Shown one piece after another: positions 57,272-64,000 of a stretch of DNA of 64,000 nucleotides. Position 1 is the stretch's first letter; each line of letters begins with the position of its first letter. The stretch covers positions 335,860-399,859 of the forward strand of contig DAIOHD010000001.1 of assembly GCA_036744835.1 (NCBI GenBank), in the 5' to 3' direction. The notes beneath the pieces were generated by a model, which worked only from the letters and a program-made list of their open reading frames with translations, made no database searches and had not been told where the DNA came from. The position numbers and the translations under genes were made by a program. This DNA comes from Candidatus Magasanikiibacteriota bacterium (lineage in GTDB: Bacteria; Patescibacteriota; Patescibacteriia; Magasanikbacterales; GWA2-37-8).

Positions 57272-57362
57272 AAACACTTCACCCTAGGTTGAAGTGTTTT
57301 ATTTTTGCTTTATTTTAGCAAAAATTTGGTTTATTGAATTTTTTAGGGAAAAGGAGTAAAAT
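57272..57362 (+). promoter_or_regulatory. Repeated module copy B: terminator hairpin + palindrome + promoter TTGAAT-17-TAAAAT
   Basis: aaacacttc-accctaggtt-gaagtgttttatttttgctttattttagcaaaaatt...ttgaattttttagggaaaaggagtaaaat. Confidence 0.65.
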
Positions 57363-57397
57363 AAAGGCATTAAAAACAATATAAACTTTTCTATAAT

Positions 57398-59113
57398 ATG
57401 GAAAATATTTTTGAAAAATTAGTGGCTTTGCTCAAAAAAGATGAGCGGTTAAAATCTCAAGAAAATACCTTGTTAAAAAACAAAGCTCAAGAATTGGCTC
57501 GAGGCAATGATTTGGAATTAATCAAACTTTTGTTATCTGATAAGACTATTAAGCAAAACTTTTTTTATAAAGTAGATGAAGCTTTGATTTTTGATAAAGA
57601 AAAGTTTATTCGTTTTATTTCCAATAAACAATTTTTGCCGGATTCTTACACTGCTTTCAAAAATAAAATTGGTTTGACTGTTGGTGATGAGTATTTGAGC
57701 GAAAATAAAGATGTTGTTTTGGTTTGGCCGTATAAAGATTGTATTTTGGAAGGTGGAATGACCAAAGAAGATCAAAAAAGAGATGAGATATTTTACAATG
57801 AAACACTTGCACCGGATCAAATAACAAAATTATTAGATCCAAAGGTTTTTACTAATTTCAAAAGATTTGATGCAAAAGGCGAACACAAACTTGAGGGTTT
57901 TAAACGGGATGAAAAAGGGAATATAAAAGATAATTTAATTATTAAAGGCAACAATTTACTTGCCCTTGCTTCGCTTAAAAAAGAATTTGCCGGAAAAGTA
58001 AAATTGATTTACATTGATCCGCCATATAATACAGGTTCAAATAGTTTTGGATATAATGACAGTTTTAATCATTCAGCATGGATGGTTTTTATGAGAAATA
58101 GATTAGAAATTGCAAAAGATTTATTAAATGATGACGGAAGTATTTATATACAATTGGATTACAATGAAGCTCATTATGGCAAAATTTTGATGGATGAAAT
58201 TTTTGGCCGAAATAATTTTCAGCGTGAGATTATTTGGAAATTAGGCGGTTTAGCTGGTTATAAAAGCTTAGCAAATAATTTTATTCGAGGACATGAGACT
58301 ATACTTTTTTATACAAAATCATCAAATTTTAATTTTAATAAAATTTATTTGCCTTATAATGAAGGACAGCTAAAAAGATTTTCCAGCGTTGATGAAGAAG
58401 GCAGAAAATATAAAATTATCACAAAAGATAAAAAATTATATTTAGACACAGCCAAAGGTGTTCCTATTTCAGATTTATGGGATGATATCGCCAGTTTTCA
58501 AACCGTTGTTAATTCGCCAGAAATTATGGATTTTGATGGACAAAAACCTGAAAAATTATTACAACGTATCATTGAATCTTCTAGTAATAAAGGAGATTTG
58601 GTTTTAGATTATCATGCAGGTACGGGTACAACATTGGCTGTAGCTCATAAATTAAATCGTCAATATATCGGGGTTGAACAAATGGAATACATTCACGATT
58701 TACCAGAATCTCGTTTGAAGCGAGTGGTTACAGGAGAACAAGGGGGAATTTCAAAAGTAGTTAATTGGAAAGGTGGAGGAGAGTTTGTTTATTTGGAACT
58801 TGCGGAATTAAATCAAAAATGGGTAAAAGAAGTTAGAGAAGCAAAAACTGAAAAAGAATTATCTAAAATTTGGGAAGAAATGAAAGAAACTGCCTTTTTG
58901 AATCATAAAATAAGTCCAGAAAGTATTGATGCAAACATAAAAGAATTTGCGGATTTGAGTTTAGAAAACAAGAAGAAATTTTTGATTGAATGTTTGGATA
59001 AAAATCAGCTTTATGTAAATTTGAGTGAGATAGGGGATAAGGAGAATAAAATAAGTGAAGGAGATAAAAGGTTAAATAATGAATTTTATCAAAAAAGATA
59101 TGAAATTAAATAA
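57398..59113 (+). CDS. Type III restriction-modification Mod subunit (beta-class N6-adenine DNA methyltransferase)
   Basis: KLIYIDPPYNTGSNSFGYNDSF (motif IV DPPY) precedes DYHAGTGTTLAVAHKLNRQYIGVEQ (motif I), i.e. beta-class order. GKILMDEIFGRNNFQREIIW is typical of type III Mod. Confidence 0.85.
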   Translation: MENIFEKLVALLKKDERLKSQENTLLKNKAQELARGNDLELIKLLLSDKTIKQNFFYKVDEALIFDKEKFIRFISNKQFLPDSYTAFKNKIGLTVGDEYLSENKDVVLVWPYKDCILEGGMTKEDQKRDEIFYNETLAPDQITKLLDPKVFTNFKRFDAKGEHKLEGFKRDEKGNIKDNLIIKGNNLLALASLKKEFAGKVKLIYIDPPYNTGSNSFGYNDSFNHSAWMVFMRNRLEIAKDLLNDDGSIYIQLDYNEAHYGKILMDEIFGRNNFQREIIWKLGGLAGYKSLANNFIRGHETILFYTKSSNFNFNKIYLPYNEGQLKRFSSVDEEGRKYKIITKDKKLYLDTAKGVPISDLWDDIASFQTVVNSPEIMDFDGQKPEKLLQRIIESSSNKGDLVLDYHAGTGTTLAVAHKLNRQYIGVEQMEYIHDLPESRLKRVVTGEQGGISKVVNWKGGGEFVYLELAELNQKWVKEVREAKTEKELSKIWEEMKETAFLNHKISPESIDANIKEFADLSLENKKKFLIECLDKNQLYVNLSEIGDKENKISEGDKRLNNEFYQKRYEIK

Positions 59114-60860
59114 AGTCGGAATAAAGAATTTTCGTTCTATAGTAAATATTAATCTAGTTATCGAAGGAGATATAACTACTTTGGTTGGGGCAAACGAACA
59201 CGGAAAATCTAATATTTTAGCGGCCATATCATTTCTTAATCCAACATATGTTTTTGATATTAAAAAAGACAAAAGAATTGATGGTAATGCAATAAAATAT
59301 TGTCCATCAATAAAATTTTCTCTTACCCTTAGTTTAGCCGAACGTAAACAAATTCAAGAATTAATTCAAAGCAAATATCCGCCCGTTATAATTAAAAATG
59401 AAGATGGAGTTTCTTCCGAGGGCAAACCAGAAAAAGAAATAAAATTAAAAGACATACCAGAAAACATAGATTATGAGCGTTTTGTTGGTGAAGAAGATGA
59501 TAAATCTTATTATAGAATAAATACCAATGATGAAGATGTTTTAACAGAAGTTTATAAATTTATTTCTCAAGAATTTGGTACAAAAATAATTTATTTTGAT
59601 GAGTTTAATGACAGGTTAGAATCTATAATTTCAAAAGTCGATATTGAAGACACGGAACGAAATCCCATAATACAGGGTCTTTTAAAAGTTTGTGATTTAG
59701 AAGGTAAGGAAAAGCAAATTTTTACTGATGATATAGGCATGAGACAGCTTTTAGATAAAGCACCAGAAAAAATTACTAAAGCTGTTAAAGAAGCTTGGTA
59801 TCAAGGGTTGCAAGATGATATAAATATAAAAATAATTCGGGATTCAAAAGGTGAAAATTTACTTATTGATATTGAAGATAAAAATACCTATATCGATTTT
59901 AAAGCAAGAAGTCGTGGTTTTAAATGGTTTTTTTCTTTTTTTCTTAAATATCGTGCTTATCACGACGGAGAATTAAAAAATTCAATTTTTCTTATAGATG
60001 AGCCGGGATTGTTTTTACATCCAAAAGGCCAAAAAGATTTACTTCAATATTTAGAAAAATTAGGTAAATCAAACCAAATAATTTATTCTACACATTCGCC
60101 GTTCATGATTAACCGACTTAAAGAAAAAAGAGTCCGGGTTGTTGAAAAAAAACAAAAAGAAGGCACGACCATTAATACAAAAGGATTCACCGCAAATTGG
60201 CGACACATGCGAACTTCTTTAGGGATGGTACTTTCAGATAGTTTTTATTTTGCAGATAAAACATTAATAGTAGAAGGTCCGGAAGATAAAATTTATATAT
60301 TAGCTTTGTTACAATATTTTATAAAAAAAGAAAATTTAGATGTTGATGTAAACATGCTGTCTATTATGGATTCTGGGGGAGCAGCAAATTTACCTGCGAT
60401 GGCCAGAATCGTAAAGGATGAGGAACGGCCATTAATTGTTTTAATTGATAGCGACAGTATTTCAGTACTAAATAAATTAAAAAAATATATTAACGATAAA
60501 GAATGTAAAGAAATAAAGGAATTTAATTCTAATGCTGCAACAATCCAAGATTTACTTCCCAAAAAATATTATGAAAAAGCTGTTAATAATTATATCCAAC
60601 GTCTTAAAAATGACGGTCTTATAGTTTTATCAGAGGGGTGTAAAGAAGATTATAAAATTAAAGAAAAATTTAAAATAGATAAAGAAGTTGAAGATTTTGT
60701 GAAGACAAATTTTAACGAAGAAAGTATTTCTAAGGTAGGCATAGCCAGAGAGTTCGAAGAATTGTTAAATACAAAAGCATTTAATAGTACTGAAAATGAT
60801 TTTGAGAATTCTAAAAAATTAATAGAATGGGTAATCAAAACTTTAGAATTAAAAGTCTAA
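59079..60860 (+). CDS. OLD-family nuclease (N-terminal ABC/AAA ATPase + C-terminal TOPRIM)
   Basis: KVGIKNFRSI...TTLVGANEHGKSNILAAISFL (Walker A/P-loop of OLD/AAA_15-21), FLIDEPGLFLHP (Walker B/D-loop region), and C-terminal TLIVEGPEDKIYILALL (TOPRIM VEG-x2-D). Overlaps the Mod stop by 35 nt; alternative start ATG 59100. Confidence 0.8.
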   Translation: MNFIKKDMKLNKVGIKNFRSIVNINLVIEGDITTLVGANEHGKSNILAAISFLNPTYVFDIKKDKRIDGNAIKYCPSIKFSLTLSLAERKQIQELIQSKYPPVIIKNEDGVSSEGKPEKEIKLKDIPENIDYERFVGEEDDKSYYRINTNDEDVLTEVYKFISQEFGTKIIYFDEFNDRLESIISKVDIEDTERNPIIQGLLKVCDLEGKEKQIFTDDIGMRQLLDKAPEKITKAVKEAWYQGLQDDINIKIIRDSKGENLLIDIEDKNTYIDFKARSRGFKWFFSFFLKYRAYHDGELKNSIFLIDEPGLFLHPKGQKDLLQYLEKLGKSNQIIYSTHSPFMINRLKEKRVRVVEKKQKEGTTINTKGFTANWRHMRTSLGMVLSDSFYFADKTLIVEGPEDKIYILALLQYFIKKENLDVDVNMLSIMDSGGAANLPAMARIVKDEERPLIVLIDSDSISVLNKLKKYINDKECKEIKEFNSNAATIQDLLPKKYYEKAVNNYIQRLKNDGLIVLSEGCKEDYKIKEKFKIDKEVEDFVKTNFNEESISKVGIAREFEELLNTKAFNSTENDFENSKKLIEWVIKTLELKV

Positions 60861-63547
60861 TTATGCTCTATACAGAATTTGATATATACAAAAATTTCGC
60901 CGGACTGGAAGTTTTTAAAAATAAAGTTATTGAAAAAGCTGAAATTTTAAGAAGTCTCAACCCAAATTTTTTAGCACGCGAATACCAAAAAGAAGCTTTG
61001 GGGCGGTTTTATTATTATTGTGAAGAATATCATAATAAACAAAAACCGATTCATCTTTTGTTTAATATGGCCACTGGTTCCGGAAAAACCATGATCATGG
61101 CGGCCAACATTTTGTATTTATATCAAAAAGGTTATCGTAATTTTATATTTTTTACTCGCCTCGGTAATATTATCCAAAAAACAAAAGATAATTTTTTAAA
61201 TTCAGAATCAAAAAAGTATTTATTTGCGAATAAAATTATTTTGGATAGTAAGGAAATAAAAGTCAAAGAAGTGGAAAATTTTGAGGGTGTAAATAATGAC
61301 GATATAAATATTTGTTTTGCGACTATCGGAAAATTGCATCGCCGTTTTAATAGTTCGGTTGAAAATTCAGTAACTTTTGAAGACTTTGAAGATAAAAAAG
61401 TTGTGTTGATTGCTGATGAAGCGCATAATTTTTCCGCGGAAACAAGAAAGACAAAATACACAAAAGAAGAATTAGAAGATAGAAATAGTTGGGAAAAAAC
61501 TGTAATGGGAATATTGAATGCCAACAAAGAAAAAGAAAATGTTTTATTGGAATTTACAGCTACTGCTAGATTAGAACAAGAATATCCGGAAATGTTGGAA
61601 AAATATAAAGACAAAGCTATTTTCCGTTATGATCTTAAAGAATATCGTCTCGATGGTTTTTCCAAAGATGTTCGAACTATTTCTATTGATGCTCCAGTTT
61701 TACAAAGAGCTTTGACTGCTGTGATTATTTCACAATATCGTCGTAAAATAGCAGAAAAAAATAAAATAGCACTCAAGCCGGTTGTTTTATTCAAAGCCAA
61801 TAGAGTAACTCCGCCAAAAGATGAAAAAGAAACAAAAGGAGAAAATCCTCAAGTTGTTGTTTCTGGGGAATTTAAAGAAAAATTTCATAAATTAATTTCG
61901 GAATTGAAAGTTAGTGATTTAAAAGAATTAAAAAAGTTGGATGATAAAATATTGCAACAAGCTTTTGGTTTTTTTGATGAACAAAAAATCAATTTATCTG
62001 ATTTGGTTGATGAAATTAAAAATGATTTTGCGACTGAAAAATGTTTGACTGTGGATGATGATAAAGATATAGAGAAAAAACAAATATTATTAAATTCTTT
62101 GGAAGATAACAATAATGAAATTCGCGCAATTTTTGCCACGGAAAAATTGAATGAGGGTTGGGATGTCCTCAATTTGTTTGATATTGTTCGTCTTTATGAT
62201 AGCCGTGATGCGCGCGAGAACAGACCGGGTAAAACAACAGTAGCCGAAGCCCAATTAATTGGTAGAGGGGCGAGGTATTATCCTTTTGTCGTAAATGGTT
62301 TGAATGATTTGTATCGTCGTAAATTTGATACAGATGCGCAAAATGAACTGCGAATATTGGAACAGCTTTTTTATTATAGTGCTAATAATCCTCGTTATAT
62401 TCAAGAATTGACTAATGTTTTGGTAAAAGAGGGAATTATAGCTTCAAACAAAATAGAGCGAGAGATAAAAATAAAAGATGAGTTTAAAGAAAAAGATCTT
62501 TGGAAAAAAGGCATGATATTTTTAAATAGCCGAAAAGAAAATATTGGTGAACATATAAATAGTTTGGCGGATGCACAAATTCATTTTGATTTTAACGCAG
62601 AGTGGAATATCTACAAATTATCCAGTGGCGATGTTTCAGAAAAGGATATTTTTACAGGCGAACAAACAAAATCAAAACAGGTTACAAAAGAAATAAGAGA
62701 ATTTAAATTGATTGATTTTGGGCAAAATGTGATAAGAAGTGCTATGGATAGAATCCCGGCTTTTAGTTTTGATCGACTTTCTAGAATTTTTGGTAATTTA
62801 CAATCTGTAAAAGAATTTGTAAATAAAAAAGATTATTTGGGAGATATAAGAGTAAAAATAGAAGGTACACCAGAACAATTGGATAATTTGAGTCAAGACC
62901 AAAAATTAAAAGTTTCCATTTTTGTGCTTGGTAGAATTTTACAAGAAATGGATAAACACAAAAGTGAATTTATTGGTGAAAAATTATTTAAAGCCCATAA
63001 ACTTTCTGATGTTTTTGTTGATAAAAAATTACAACTTGACAATGATAGTAATCGCGCACAAGAAATGCGAGATTTAATTTTGAAAGACAAAAAATGGTTT
63101 GCACAAAATGAAATTTGGGGAACAAGCGAAGAAGAATCATTTATTAAATTTTTTGATGTAGTTGCTAATGAATTAGAGAAGAAATATAGTGAAATTGGTT
63201 TGCTCCGCAATGAACAACATTTTAAAATTTATAGTTTTGACGAAGGATTAGCGTTTTCTCCGGATTTTGTATTATTTTTAAAAGAAAAGAAAACTAAGCA
63301 AGAAGTTGTTTATCAAGTATTTATTGAACCAAAAGGTGATCAATTTTTAGACAAAGATAATACTTTTGAACAGTCACAAGAAGGCTGGAAGCAAAAGTTT
63401 TTGTTAGATATTGAGAAGAATTACAAAGTTGATTTGAAAATGGAAAATAAAGATTTTAGATTAATTGGTTTACCTTTTTATAATGAGGGGAATAAAAATC
63501 CGAAGTTGAAAGAAAAGTTTGAAGAGGGGTTTAAAGAGAAAATATGA
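60827..63547 (+). CDS. Type III restriction enzyme Res subunit (SF2 DEAH helicase + C-terminal PD-(D/E)xK nuclease)
   Basis: MATGSGKTMIMAANILYL (motif I), VVLIADEAHNF (DEAH), AEAQLIGRGARY (motif VI), and C-terminal VYQVFIEPKGDQF (E-x-K). Overlaps the OLD gene by 34 nt; alternative start ATG 60863, 2 nt after the OLD stop. Confidence 0.8.
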   Translation: MGNQNFRIKSLIMLYTEFDIYKNFAGLEVFKNKVIEKAEILRSLNPNFLAREYQKEALGRFYYYCEEYHNKQKPIHLLFNMATGSGKTMIMAANILYLYQKGYRNFIFFTRLGNIIQKTKDNFLNSESKKYLFANKIILDSKEIKVKEVENFEGVNNDDINICFATIGKLHRRFNSSVENSVTFEDFEDKKVVLIADEAHNFSAETRKTKYTKEELEDRNSWEKTVMGILNANKEKENVLLEFTATARLEQEYPEMLEKYKDKAIFRYDLKEYRLDGFSKDVRTISIDAPVLQRALTAVIISQYRRKIAEKNKIALKPVVLFKANRVTPPKDEKETKGENPQVVVSGEFKEKFHKLISELKVSDLKELKKLDDKILQQAFGFFDEQKINLSDLVDEIKNDFATEKCLTVDDDKDIEKKQILLNSLEDNNNEIRAIFATEKLNEGWDVLNLFDIVRLYDSRDARENRPGKTTVAEAQLIGRGARYYPFVVNGLNDLYRRKFDTDAQNELRILEQLFYYSANNPRYIQELTNVLVKEGIIASNKIEREIKIKDEFKEKDLWKKGMIFLNSRKENIGEHINSLADAQIHFDFNAEWNIYKLSSGDVSEKDIFTGEQTKSKQVTKEIREFKLIDFGQNVIRSAMDRIPAFSFDRLSRIFGNLQSVKEFVNKKDYLGDIRVKIEGTPEQLDNLSQDQKLKVSIFVLGRILQEMDKHKSEFIGEKLFKAHKLSDVFVDKKLQLDNDSNRAQEMRDLILKDKKWFAQNEIWGTSEEESFIKFFDVVANELEKKYSEIGLLRNEQHFKIYSFDEGLAFSPDFVLFLKEKKTKQEVVYQVFIEPKGDQFLDKDNTFEQSQEGWKQKFLLDIEKNYKVDLKMENKDFRLIGLPFYNEGNKNPKLKEKFEEGFKEKI

Positions 63548-64000
63548 TAGATAATAATGAGTTAAAAAAAGAATTTGAAGATCAATTAGAGTTGTTAGAT
63601 GCTTTAACTAGGGTTTATGATAAAAATGAGTTTGTAGTTTCTAAATCAATCGCTACTACTATTCGTGTTTTATTACACAATACAAAAAATTCCCATTCAT
63701 TAATAGAGCAAATTGGTTTTATTAATGAAAAATTTTTTGATTCATCTTCATCCTTTTCTTTAAAAGAAAAGGATATTCAAAGATTTGGTAGTTTTTGTGG
63801 TTTGGTGGGAATTTCTACAGGAATAAATAATACTAATAATATTTATATTCCTTATCTTGACAGTGTGCCAGAAAAAAGTTTTGGTTATACAAATTTCGAC
63901 GAATATTGGGAAAGGATAATTTTTATAGATAAATACAATAATAAATTTTCTAGAAAAGATATTATTTTAAATGTTGCTAATAAAGGTGGTGGGGCACATG
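63544..64000 (+). CDS. Partial CDS of unknown function, translationally coupled to Res (ATGA overlap)
   Basis: ATG 63544 overlaps the Res TGA; open to the window end (>152 aa: MIDNNELKKEFEDQLELLDALTRVYDKNEFVV...NKGGGAH). Confidence 0.5.
   Translation, partial: MIDNNELKKEFEDQLELLDALTRVYDKNEFVVSKSIATTIRVLLHNTKNSHSLIEQIGFINEKFFDSSSSFSLKEKDIQRFGSFCGLVGISTGINNTNNIYIPYLDSVPEKSFGYTNFDEYWERIIFIDKYNNKFSRKDIILNVANKGGGAH

Follow-up and report, generated by a model that had tools for sequence, protein, structure and literature searches.

Introduction

Nucleases of the OLD family are sorted into classes by gene context: single genes, genes paired with UvrD, genes in retrons, the split genes of PARIS, and the archaeal Cran1 class. 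The class 1 enzymes, which include P2 Old and the proteins of Thermus scotoductus (Protein Data Bank [PDB]: 6P74) and Vibrio cholerae, carry an N-terminal ABC ATPase and a C-terminal TOPRIM domain on one polypeptide and are described as encoded by single genes that are not proximal to other defense genes (PMC10568477). Among them, P2 OLD has tRNase activity (PMC12445682; 10.64898/2026.07.10.737580) and Vibrio OLD is a nickase (PMC12392090). In Gabija, an OLD-family ATPase-TOPRIM gene (encoding GajA) lies beside a gene for an SF1 UvrD-like helicase, GajB, and in PARIS (class 4) the ABC ATPase sensor AriA and the TOPRIM effector AriB are two split proteins. ABC-ATPase/TOPRIM modules that are fired by anti-defense proteins have been described, the trigger of PARIS being the anti-restriction protein Ocr (10.1101/2024.01.29.577857).

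Genes can also be embedded in the operons of defense systems, a pattern for which PrrC in EcoprrI is the precedent (10.1101/2024.01.29.577857), and a second defense system inside a type I restriction-modification (R-M) operon has been documented experimentally (PMC11411939). In PrrC of EcoprrI, a type Ic R-M system, and likewise in RloC, an ABC-type NTPase is joined to a nuclease, and the gene lies within an R-M operon; the PrrC effector is an anticodon nuclease domain, PrrC is masked by the R-M enzyme, and it serves as a model of anti-anti-restriction by a second-line gene. The “guilt by embedding” genes (HEC-01, HEC-04, PDCs, and TgvAB in a Vibrio type I R-M system) show the same nested-module pattern as the locus described here, and one of them, HEC-04, combines an ABC ATPase and TOPRIM in one protein and acts alone; these genes come from a survey of the Hma, BREX, DISARM, and type I R-M systems of RefSeq, whereas the host system here is type III. 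Our literature search, covering reviews and surveys, found no R-M-associated class of OLD and no OLD gene between mod and res. As both embedding and the PrrC paradigm were established before, the present locus represents neither a new enzyme type nor a new principle. Its clade does, however, provide a clean natural experiment for asking what makes second-line defense genes nest within first-line systems, with one nuclease gene in several unrelated R-M backbones and mostly in the same slot.

Organization of the Locus

We analyzed a 64,000-nt stretch of DNA (herein the window) from a Candidatus Magasanikiibacteriota bacterium (contig DAIOHD010000001.1, positions 335,860 through 399,859 of the forward strand); the contig that carries it is a genome of 906 kb, a size typical of reduced genomes. 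Near its end, four ORFs run head to tail on the plus strand and encode Mod, an OLD-family ABC-ATPase/TOPRIM protein, a type III Res, and a fourth protein (ORF4). An earlier note on this DNA had described a type III R-M operon with an OLD gene between mod and res, and profile matches together with catalytic motifs in all three proteins confirm that description.

The mod gene (57398 through 59113, plus strand) encodes a beta-class type III DNA methyltransferase of 571 residues with DPPY at residue 207; the protein matches PF12564 (TypeIII_RM_meth, 8.7e-24), PF01555 (N6_N4_Mtase, 5e-51), and the PADLOC model MTase_III (1.1e-186), and it is 60 to 62% identical to the Mod proteins of two relatives, L084 and L165. 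The res gene (60863 through 63547, plus strand; 894 residues from a conserved MLY start, against 906 residues for the longest ORF, 60827 through 63547) encodes a type III restriction subunit with an SF2 helicase and an endonuclease motif. It matches PF04851 (ResIII, 2.3e-27) and PADLOC REase_III (2.7e-113 over residues 51 through 895) and contains GSGKT, DEAH, a C-terminal PDF...EPK nuclease motif (PD...ExK), and also HI_1054 domains. Because DPPY is retained in Mod and GSGKT, DEAH, and PD...EPK in Res, so that each subunit keeps its defining catalytic motifs, the R-M system is predicted to be complete without OLD. On a Bacillus cereus plasmid (L175), a homolog of Res follows Mod directly, with a 2-nt gap, and OLD is absent. 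We considered and rejected the idea that OLD substitutes for the restriction nuclease, as Res keeps its own PD...ExK motif and the type I systems that host related OLDs have HsdR.

Over 9,790 nt, an independent Logan assembly (L001) matches the window locus without a single mismatch, and independent metagenomes (L084, L165, and L085) show the order Mod-OLD-Res again; an assembly artefact is therefore excluded, and the arrangement is no one-off. Upstream, a terminator-like hairpin (57272 through 57299, plus strand), formed by a 10-pair stem and the T-run TATTTTTGCT, would terminate an SNase-like gene and set the 5′ limit of the operon. The best promoter-like site (TTAAAA-16-TATAAT; 57370 through 57397, plus strand), whose −10 box abuts the Mod ATG, is a consensus match alone (10/12), and such sites are no commoner in the region than in shuffled sequence. 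A hairpin scan within the genes returned two weak, short terminator-like hairpins, one at 62152 through 62171 (plus strand, 7 pairs) and the other near 60205 through 60187 (minus strand), and no others. Thus mod and res lie on the same strand with the OLD gene in between and no convincing internal terminator.

Read literally, the longest ORFs overlap by 35 nt (Mod/OLD), by 34 nt (OLD/Res), and in an ATGA (res/ORF4), as the earlier note had stated. Homologs argue for shorter OLD and Res genes. All OLD relatives start at the position equivalent to Met8 (59100), which leaves a Mod/OLD overlap of 14 nt. Of the five closest relatives, four have a conserved stop-nTT-ATG junction, where the gene after OLD starts 2 to 3 nt past the OLD stop; in the fifth (L085) that gene overlaps the stop by 4 nt. 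By the conserved junction, the Res start would be 60863, separated from OLD by 2 nt instead of overlapping it. Packing is tight under either choice of start codons.

Domains and Class of the OLD Protein

From the conserved Met8, the OLD gene (59100 through 60860, plus strand) encodes 586 residues; the longest ORF (59079 through 60860) encodes 593. The ATPase part matches PF13175 (AAA_15, 2.8e-24), as well as AAA_21 and SMC_N, and residues 391 through 459 match PF20469 (OLD-like_TOPRIM, 1.4e-8); with the PADLOC model “Old”, these matches bear out the assignment of the middle protein to the OLD family. The motifs GANEHGKS, DEP, HS, EGPED, and DSD are present, with Walker A K43, Walker B D307/E308, H339, and TOPRIM E399, D403, D457, and D459 (numbering of the 593-residue form), and the Walker A, Walker B, H-loop, and TOPRIM acidic residues are invariant across 39 OLD homologs. 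By its sequence, the protein is intact, with all ATPase and TOPRIM catalytic residues retained.

The earlier note had discussed the gene in terms of Gabija-type (class 2) OLDs, but model comparisons do not place it among them. Among PADLOC models, “Old” (6.5e-38) lies far above the GajA models (1e-22 or weaker); AriA matches the ATPase part alone (7.6e-28), the retron Eco8 model scores 45.8 bits against a cut-off of 250 bits, and HEC-04 is absent from the 25 best models. A phmmer search of the PDB at E ≤ 0.01 found the class 1 Thermus OLD (TsOLD, 6P74; 1.9e-15) as the sole OLD structure and no GajA chain, and Foldseek placed 6P74 first (about 15% identity in the structural alignment) and GajA second. 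The window operon has no reverse transcriptase, and its ATPase and TOPRIM domains are fused in one ORF, unlike the split proteins of PARIS, which sets it apart from classes 3 and 4. The protein thus appears class-1-like, within a class-1-like clade, and, as in class 1, it lacks a helicase, reverse transcriptase, or split nuclease dedicated to it.

Pfam searches of the operon found no UvrD-type helicase, in agreement with the earlier note; the helicase neighbor is the SF2 (ResIII/DEAH) subunit Res. As the OLD and Res genes adjoin and Res has a helicase domain, the two could in principle assemble into a complex of nuclease and helicase, with Res in the place of GajB, and the Foldseek rank of GajA is in keeping with such a hybrid. 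We regard it as extremely improbable: “Old” and TsOLD match the protein better than GajA does, the type III Res bears its own endonuclease motif whereas the Gabija helicase is of the SF1 UvrD-like kind, the nearest OLD relatives (76 to 77% identity) are found without any Res, and others occur with HsdR, without a helicase, or alone. Because OLDs 49 to 77% identical to that of the window reside in type I and RM-plus-S operons without a type III Res, and others stand alone, Res is not a dedicated partner, and the hybrid OLD-type III system suggested earlier is not sustained.

R-M Contexts of the OLD Clade

Most members of the clade are from uncultivated Patescibacteria and Bacteroidota. Same-strand R-M genes lie within two genes of OLD in 21 of the 27 informative loci, which were gathered by pattern-based searches and include several related ones, so that the counts are not independent events; we estimate at least 12 independent OLD/R-M associations. 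Among 126 control neighbors, no R-M family is found in the 25 most frequent Pfam families. The R-M partners comprise three unrelated type III families, type I, fused RM-plus-S, type IIG, and type IIP systems, and no single partner family is conserved across the clade.

The order Mod-OLD-Res is found in the window, L084, and L165, and with an unrelated type III family in L085; in L176, OLD is followed by a third type of Res. OLD sits between a fused RM gene and S in L002 and L164, whose OLD proteins are those 76 to 77% identical to the window protein, and within HsdM-OLD-HsdS-HsdR operons in L166, L008, L088, and L093. It ends the operon in L004 (R-M-S-OLD) and in L005 and L150 (Mod-Res-OLD), comes one gene after a type IIG gene in L090, and directly follows a type IIP restriction endonuclease gene in L092. 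Standalone copies occur in L171 and L172, and in L173 OLD lies beside a type IIP R-M system on the opposite strand; a small HTH gene precedes it in L171 and L173. Besides the window, nine loci have OLD between M and S or R; the hosts of nested copies are type I, IIB-like, and III systems, and type IIG and IIP systems are the neighbors of adjacent copies at the operon end. A methyltransferase gene is directly 5′ of OLD in 10 loci, across unrelated methyltransferase families. The clade is found repeatedly in or next to unrelated R-M types, usually just after a methyltransferase gene, and in some cases alone. In contrast to the single genes of class 1, its members are mostly in or beside R-M operons, often with predicted co-translation, and their hosts are wider than the type I systems of PrrC.

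Operon junctions do take other inserts: a 145-residue gene sits between mod and res in Chryseobacterium pA2BH1, and Mrr, DUF2971, and KAP NTPase genes likewise occupy the HsdM-HsdS gap. OLD might then be a neutral passenger, functionally unrelated to R-M, whose arrival between mod and res was accidental. This is very unlikely given the strength of the R-M linkage against essentially none in the controls, the conserved architecture of the OLD junctions, and purifying selection that exceeds that on Mod or Res (see below); the present sample also points toward an adjacency to R-M genes in this clade far above that of other defense genes in the same genomes.

What the partner systems all have in common is that they make double-strand breaks where DNA is unmodified, and P2 Old and Thermus OLD are 5′-to-3′ exonucleases on linear DNA in vitro (PMC10568477). 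OLD could thus degrade the DNA ends made by restriction, in a RecBCD-like role as in E. coli, so that a few type III or type I cuts would be lethal to phage in small-genome hosts, for which the reduced genome carrying the window would qualify. We consider this improbable: recent work assigns to P2 OLD an in vivo activity of tRNA cleavage, not DNA degradation (PMC12445682; 10.64898/2026.07.10.737580), the clade has standalone members, and it is also present in Bacteroidota of normal genome size.

Co-inheritance, Context Switching, and Selection

In three lineages (the window and two relatives), Mod, OLD, and Res diverged together as one unit. Across the OLD tree, R-M contexts are interleaved, and in comparison with L002 and L164 the DNA similarity extends from about 9 nt before the OLD start to 15 nt past its stop; because the contexts are interleaved and this similarity ends at the ends of the gene, OLD appears to switch contexts on a short timescale. 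Plasmid searches with OLD gave relatives at ≤35% identity and no more, and a search of viral contigs gave no close relative. Values of dN are 0.16 to 0.22 for OLD, 0.26 for Res, and 0.30 to 0.35 for Mod, with dS saturated, so that dN/dS is bounded only; OLD appears to evolve more slowly than Mod or Res, under strong purifying selection.

A Proposed Second-Line Role for the Nested OLD

On balance, and by a modest preponderance, we favor the reading of a canonical type III R-M operon with an autonomous, separate second-line phage-defense module, OLD, nested at the mod-res junction; we infer the autonomy of OLD from gene context alone. Presumably expressed on the same transcript as mod and res, OLD would work by itself like the single-gene OLDs, its ABC-ATPase sensor restraining the TOPRIM nuclease until infection. 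Against phages that evade R-M, it would thus form a second line, probably an abortive one. As its trigger, we consider most likely something linked to restriction evasion, for example a DNA-mimic anti-restriction protein, by analogy with the PrrC anticodon nuclease in EcoprrI and with PARIS, which shares the pairing of an ABC-ATPase sensor with a TOPRIM effector and whose Ocr-type triggering is the logic we propose for an R-M-nested OLD. Alternatively, aberrant phage replication DNA might serve, as for P2 OLD. Once triggered, the nuclease would be expected to cut tRNA, like P2 OLD and AriB, or to nick DNA, like Vibrio OLD. Nesting would provide co-transfer and co-expression with the first-line R-M system. 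A testable prediction is that OLD would become active when anti-restriction proteins are present or the R-M complex is lost.

Several observations run counter to autonomy: the very strong linkage to R-M, the joint divergence of Mod, OLD, and Res in three lineages, and the methyltransferase-adjacent position. The regularity of that position exceeds what one would expect if defense genes simply cluster in islands, and OLD could be linked, functionally or physically, to the methyltransferase. In a PrrC-like coupling, OLD would be held latent on the methyltransferase core (Mod2 here, M2S in type I) until the R-M complex is inactivated or deformed by an anti-restriction protein of a phage, freeing OLD to kill the cell or destroy phage nucleic acid. 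PrrC-EcoprrI is the precedent, although the effector of the window OLD is TOPRIM and its masking by the R-M enzyme is putative. The persistence of the methyltransferase gene directly before OLD despite changes of R-M type, the tight junctions that look translationally coupled, and the co-inheritance of Mod, OLD, and Res are consistent with such a coupling, and the HTH gene before the standalone copies in L171 and L173 suggests that OLD needs some control. We nevertheless consider the coupling rather unlikely, as the methyltransferases are unrelated (an N6_N4_Mtase Mod versus an N6_Mtase HsdM or fused RM), OLDs 70 to 77% identical pair with different methyltransferase families, no extra domain separates embedded from standalone OLDs (all about 580 to 610 residues), and some OLDs follow Res or HsdS or stand alone.

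The earlier note had also raised the idea that the R-M machinery gates OLD, and to this the preference for the post-methyltransferase slot lends some support. It is conceivable, if doubtful, that the clade constitutes a distinct, R-M-coupled class of OLD, which would be made immediately after the methyltransferase in translation and would dock on the methyltransferase core of the host enzyme as a built-in guard; equally tentative is the corollary that OLD would fire when a phage protein neutralizes restriction and would be a portable, PrrC-like module for type I, IIB, and III systems.

The Gene Downstream of res

ORF4 (63544 through 64000, plus strand, cut by the window end), whose ATGA start overlaps the res stop, encodes a SEC-C-motif protein; in full it has 263 residues, as read from L001 beyond the end of the window. 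The suggestion that it extends the operon does not hold up: its homologs sit in unrelated contexts without R-M genes, and in the closest Mod-OLD-Res relatives the genes after Res differ from ORF4. It appears to be an adjacent gene rather than a conserved component of the system.

Architecture of the mod-OLD-res Operon

Four ORFs run head to tail on the + strand (57398 through 64000). The first, a type III Mod (from 57398), matches PF12564, PF01555, and the PADLOC model MTase_III (1.1e-186) and carries DPPY at residue 207. The second, OLD, matches AAA_15 (2.8e-24) and OLD-like_TOPRIM (1.4e-8), with “Old” as its top PADLOC model (6.5e-38). The third, a type III Res, matches ResIII and, over residues 51 through 895, PADLOC REase_III (2.7e-113); it has the helicase motifs GSGKT and DEAH, and the endonuclease motif PDF...EPK at its C terminus. 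The fourth, ORF4, shares an ATGA overlap with the res stop and is cut by the window end. The order Mod-OLD-Res, which the earlier note allowed might be an assembly error, is no such artefact, because a separate Logan assembly of the locus (L001) is identical to the window over 9,790 nt. The G+C content of the four genes (26 to 30%, versus 35% in the remaining window) suggests that they were acquired from elsewhere.

A terminator-like hairpin (57272 through 57299) closes the upstream SNase-like gene, and the best promoter-like site (57370 through 57397) has a −10 box ending one base 5′ of the Mod ATG. No Shine-Dalgarno sequence was found near this ATG (57370 through 57398), and the operon mRNA may be leaderless. 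A terminator scan within the genes returned only two hairpins, both weak and short: one of 7 pairs on the + strand (62152 through 62171) and one on the − strand (near 60205 through 60187).

The gene overlaps of 35 and 34 nt described previously hold for the longest ORFs, but homologs indicate shorter genes. In 38 of 38 aligned relatives OLD starts at the position of Met8 in the window protein (MKLNKV, 59100), and the mod/OLD overlap is 14 nt if the gene begins there. Among the five closest relatives (contigs given here by L numbers), four (L002, L084, L164, and L165) have the next gene beginning 2 to 3 nt after the OLD stop, with stop-nTT-ATG as the conserved junction; the fifth, L085, has a 4-nt overlap between the downstream gene and the OLD stop. 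The Res N terminus in L084 and L165 is MLY, as encoded from the window ATG at 60863, and with this start OLD and Res are separated by a 2-nt gap, with no overlap. The predicted packing is close enough for co-transcription, and translation of the packed genes is probably coupled.

OLD Resembles Class 1 Enzymes

In a sequence search of solved structures, the best match of OLD is the class 1 OLD of Thermus scotoductus (6P74; 1.9e-15); the matches below it cover the ATPase domain only (Septu and retron PtuA, Rad50), and Gabija GajA chains are absent from the matches. Foldseek with an AlphaFold model of OLD (built on 39 homologs; mean pLDDT 86) placed 6P74 first and GajA second; the TM-scores are low (0.33 to 0.38), so the fold search supports the OLD family but not the class. 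No UvrD-like gene was found near OLD. Because 6P74 is the best match, GajA is not matched in sequence, and a UvrD-like neighbor is absent, OLD is predicted to be class-1-like rather than Gabija-type, and a Gabija-like hybrid with the type III enzyme is disfavored.

OLD Relatives Are Associated with Diverse R-M Systems

Relatives were gathered by a protein search, which gave 301 hits at E<=1e-10, by scanning collections of genomes, metagenomes, and viral contigs, and by contig look-ups, and their neighbors were annotated with Pfam and local phmmer. Same-strand R-M genes lie within two genes of OLD at 21 of 27 informative clade loci and are directly adjacent at 18 of these 21; the 27 loci are not all independent and represent, by our estimate, a dozen or more separate associations.

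The window, L084, and L165 share Mod-OLD-Res with the same Mod and Res families (OLD 70 to 72% identical to that of the window); L085 has this order with an unrelated type III pair (60%), and in L176 OLD precedes a type III Res of yet another, third kind (RE_endonuc), the upstream gene being cut at the contig end (63%). In L002 and L164 (73 to 77%), OLD has a fused nuclease-methyltransferase (HSDR_N_2 plus N6_Mtase) on its 5′ side and an S subunit on its 3′ side. HsdM-OLD-(other genes)-HsdS-HsdR occurs in L166, L008, L088, and L093 and, truncated, in L089 and L094 (33 to 49%). OLD ends the operon in L004 (R-M-S-OLD) and in L005, L006, and L150 (Mod-Res-OLD; together 27 to 46%), lies one gene 3′ of an MmeI-like type IIG gene in L090 (34%), follows an MvaI/BcnI type II endonuclease gene in L092 (32%), and is no more than two genes away from a type I system in L134 and L139 (about 29 to 31%). 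It stands alone in L171 and L172 (41 to 45%) and adjoins a type IIP R-M system on the opposite strand in L173 (42%), with a small HTH gene 5′ of OLD in L171 and L173; no R-M genes were seen at L007, L009, and L086 (33 to 49%).

Several individual loci have further features. At L086 (8016 through 9809) the OLD gene (49% identical), with no R-M genes nearby, is broken into two ORFs, 321 and 273 aa long, and is probably a frameshifted pseudogene. In L173, a gene for a T4 Rnl1-like RNA ligase (PF09511; 7493 through 8791) is located 1.2 kb 3′ of OLD, a neighbor worth noting should these OLDs prove to cut tRNA. In L004, a Chryseolinea MAG, a 1014-aa reverse-transcriptase-domain protein is encoded directly 3′ of OLD at the end of the type I operon (9995 through 13039).

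A control set comprised 126 immediate neighbors of 83 more distant ATPase/OLD relatives, gathered by the same searches. None of the 25 commonest Pfam families in this set is an R-M family, so each R-M family has at most three members there. Many of these distant relatives are ATPase-only proteins of ∼375 aa from uncultivated bacteria, and rplQ (ribosomal protein L17) makes up 17 of the 126 neighbors (L012, L017, L024, and similar loci); this context looks housekeeping, unlike the defense context of the OLD clade.

OLD Is Shared between Different R-M Backbones

R-M contexts are interleaved in a neighbor-joining tree of OLD proteins, and type III and RM-plus-S hosts alternate even within the subclade above 70% identity. 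Against L084 and L165, DNA similarity of 71 to 72% is unbroken from the 3′ part of mod across OLD into res (protein identities: Mod, 60 to 62%; OLD, 70 to 72%; Res, 64 to 65%), and the three genes have moved as one in this lineage. Against L002 and L164, similarity extends from about 9 nt 5′ of the conserved OLD start to 15 nt past the stop; between these different R-M backbones, the OLD gene alone is in common. With dS saturated, dN is lowest for OLD (0.16 to 0.22; Res, 0.26; Mod, 0.30 to 0.35), and OLD has the appearance of a functional gene under selection, not a decaying insert.

Homologs of the window Res are usually encoded immediately 3′ of Mod, for example, with a 2-nt gap on a Bacillus cereus plasmid. 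On the Chryseobacterium plasmid pA2BH1 (L174, 4501 through 12418) the mod-res slot holds a different gene (145 aa, no Pfam match), and in type I hosts Mrr, DUF2971, and KAP NTPase genes also lie in the gap 3′ of OLD. As other genes occupy the same slots, R-M operon junctions serve as nests for several kinds of defense-like genes. The pA2BH1 interval additionally encodes a 1612-aa AAA-domain protein 3′ of the res of this related type III system.

A Proposed Second-Line Role for OLD

The R-M system and OLD are each complete; this, the changes of partner, and the occurrence of some OLDs alone fit the known pattern of nested defense genes. Such genes lie within Hma, BREX, DISARM, and type I R-M systems and include ABC-ATPase/TOPRIM modules acting alone (Payne et al., 10.1101/2024.01.29.577857); TgvAB, embedded in a type I operon of Vibrio, is a case demonstrated by experiment (PMC11411939). 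PrrC, which is nested in EcoprrI and joins an ABC-type NTPase to a tRNA nuclease in one fused protein, is released when a phage peptide blocks restriction, and in PARIS, an OLD relative with split domains, the trigger is the anti-restriction protein Ocr (10.1101/2024.01.29.577857). P2 OLD responds to aberrant DNA structures and acts as a tRNase in abortive defense (PMC12445682; 10.64898/2026.07.10.737580), and a Vibrio OLD nicks DNA (PMC12392090). Based on this fit and these precedents, we propose that the window OLD would be an autonomous second-line sensor-nuclease, co-expressed with the type III enzyme, that would catch phages escaping restriction; the steps leading from trigger to substrate are inferred by analogy.

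The main rival is PrrC-like physical coupling of OLD to the R-M enzyme. A methyltransferase gene is immediately 5′ of OLD in 10 loci, and this regular placement, across unrelated methyltransferase families, lends some weight to coupling; of the features seen, only this one is left unexplained by simple nesting. The partner changes and solitary OLDs fit the autonomous reading. OLD might, alternatively, act as a post-cleavage exonuclease.

The OLD reviews and recent phylogenomic survey consulted recognize class 1 (alone), class 2 (Gabija), class 3 (retron), and class 4 (PARIS), together with eleven unnamed clades and an archaeal class, Cran1, with no mention of an R-M-linked group; type III systems fall outside the coverage of the embedding survey (10.1101/2024.01.29.577857), and full-text literature searches turned up no description of an OLD gene in the mod-res gap. 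The nesting itself is of a known kind; new within it are this clade of R-M-associated OLDs and the type III system that hosts one.

ORF4 and the Surrounding Island

The full 263-aa ORF4 product, read on the matching L001 contig, has a C-terminal SEC-C zinc motif as its sole Pfam match and belongs to a family of SEC-C proteins of about 265 aa that is common in Patescibacteria. Neither R-M nor OLD genes were found near its homologs at three of three loci examined, where the neighbors are unrelated housekeeping genes, and 3′ of res the nearest Mod-OLD-Res relatives carry different genes: L084 encodes a HerA-like protein and an unknown protein of 191 aa there, and L165 a YgjP-like one. These contexts argue against ORF4 as a conserved part of the system.

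The operon sits within an island-like stretch (window 54255 through 57252; L001 10155 through 15834, past the window end) of a host contig that spans 906 kb in full. Upstream are genes for a GIY-YIG protein (54255 through 54503), a DUF3800 protein (54627 through 55316) matching the PADLOC candidate PDC-M04A (4e-8), and an SNase-like lipoprotein (56419 through 57252) matching PADLOC “SNc+LTD” (3e-35); 3′ of ORF4, L001 encodes CasR/HTH_24-like, 23S_rRNA_IVP, 400-aa HNH, and 408-aa PDDEXK_1 (Cas4/DruK-like) proteins.
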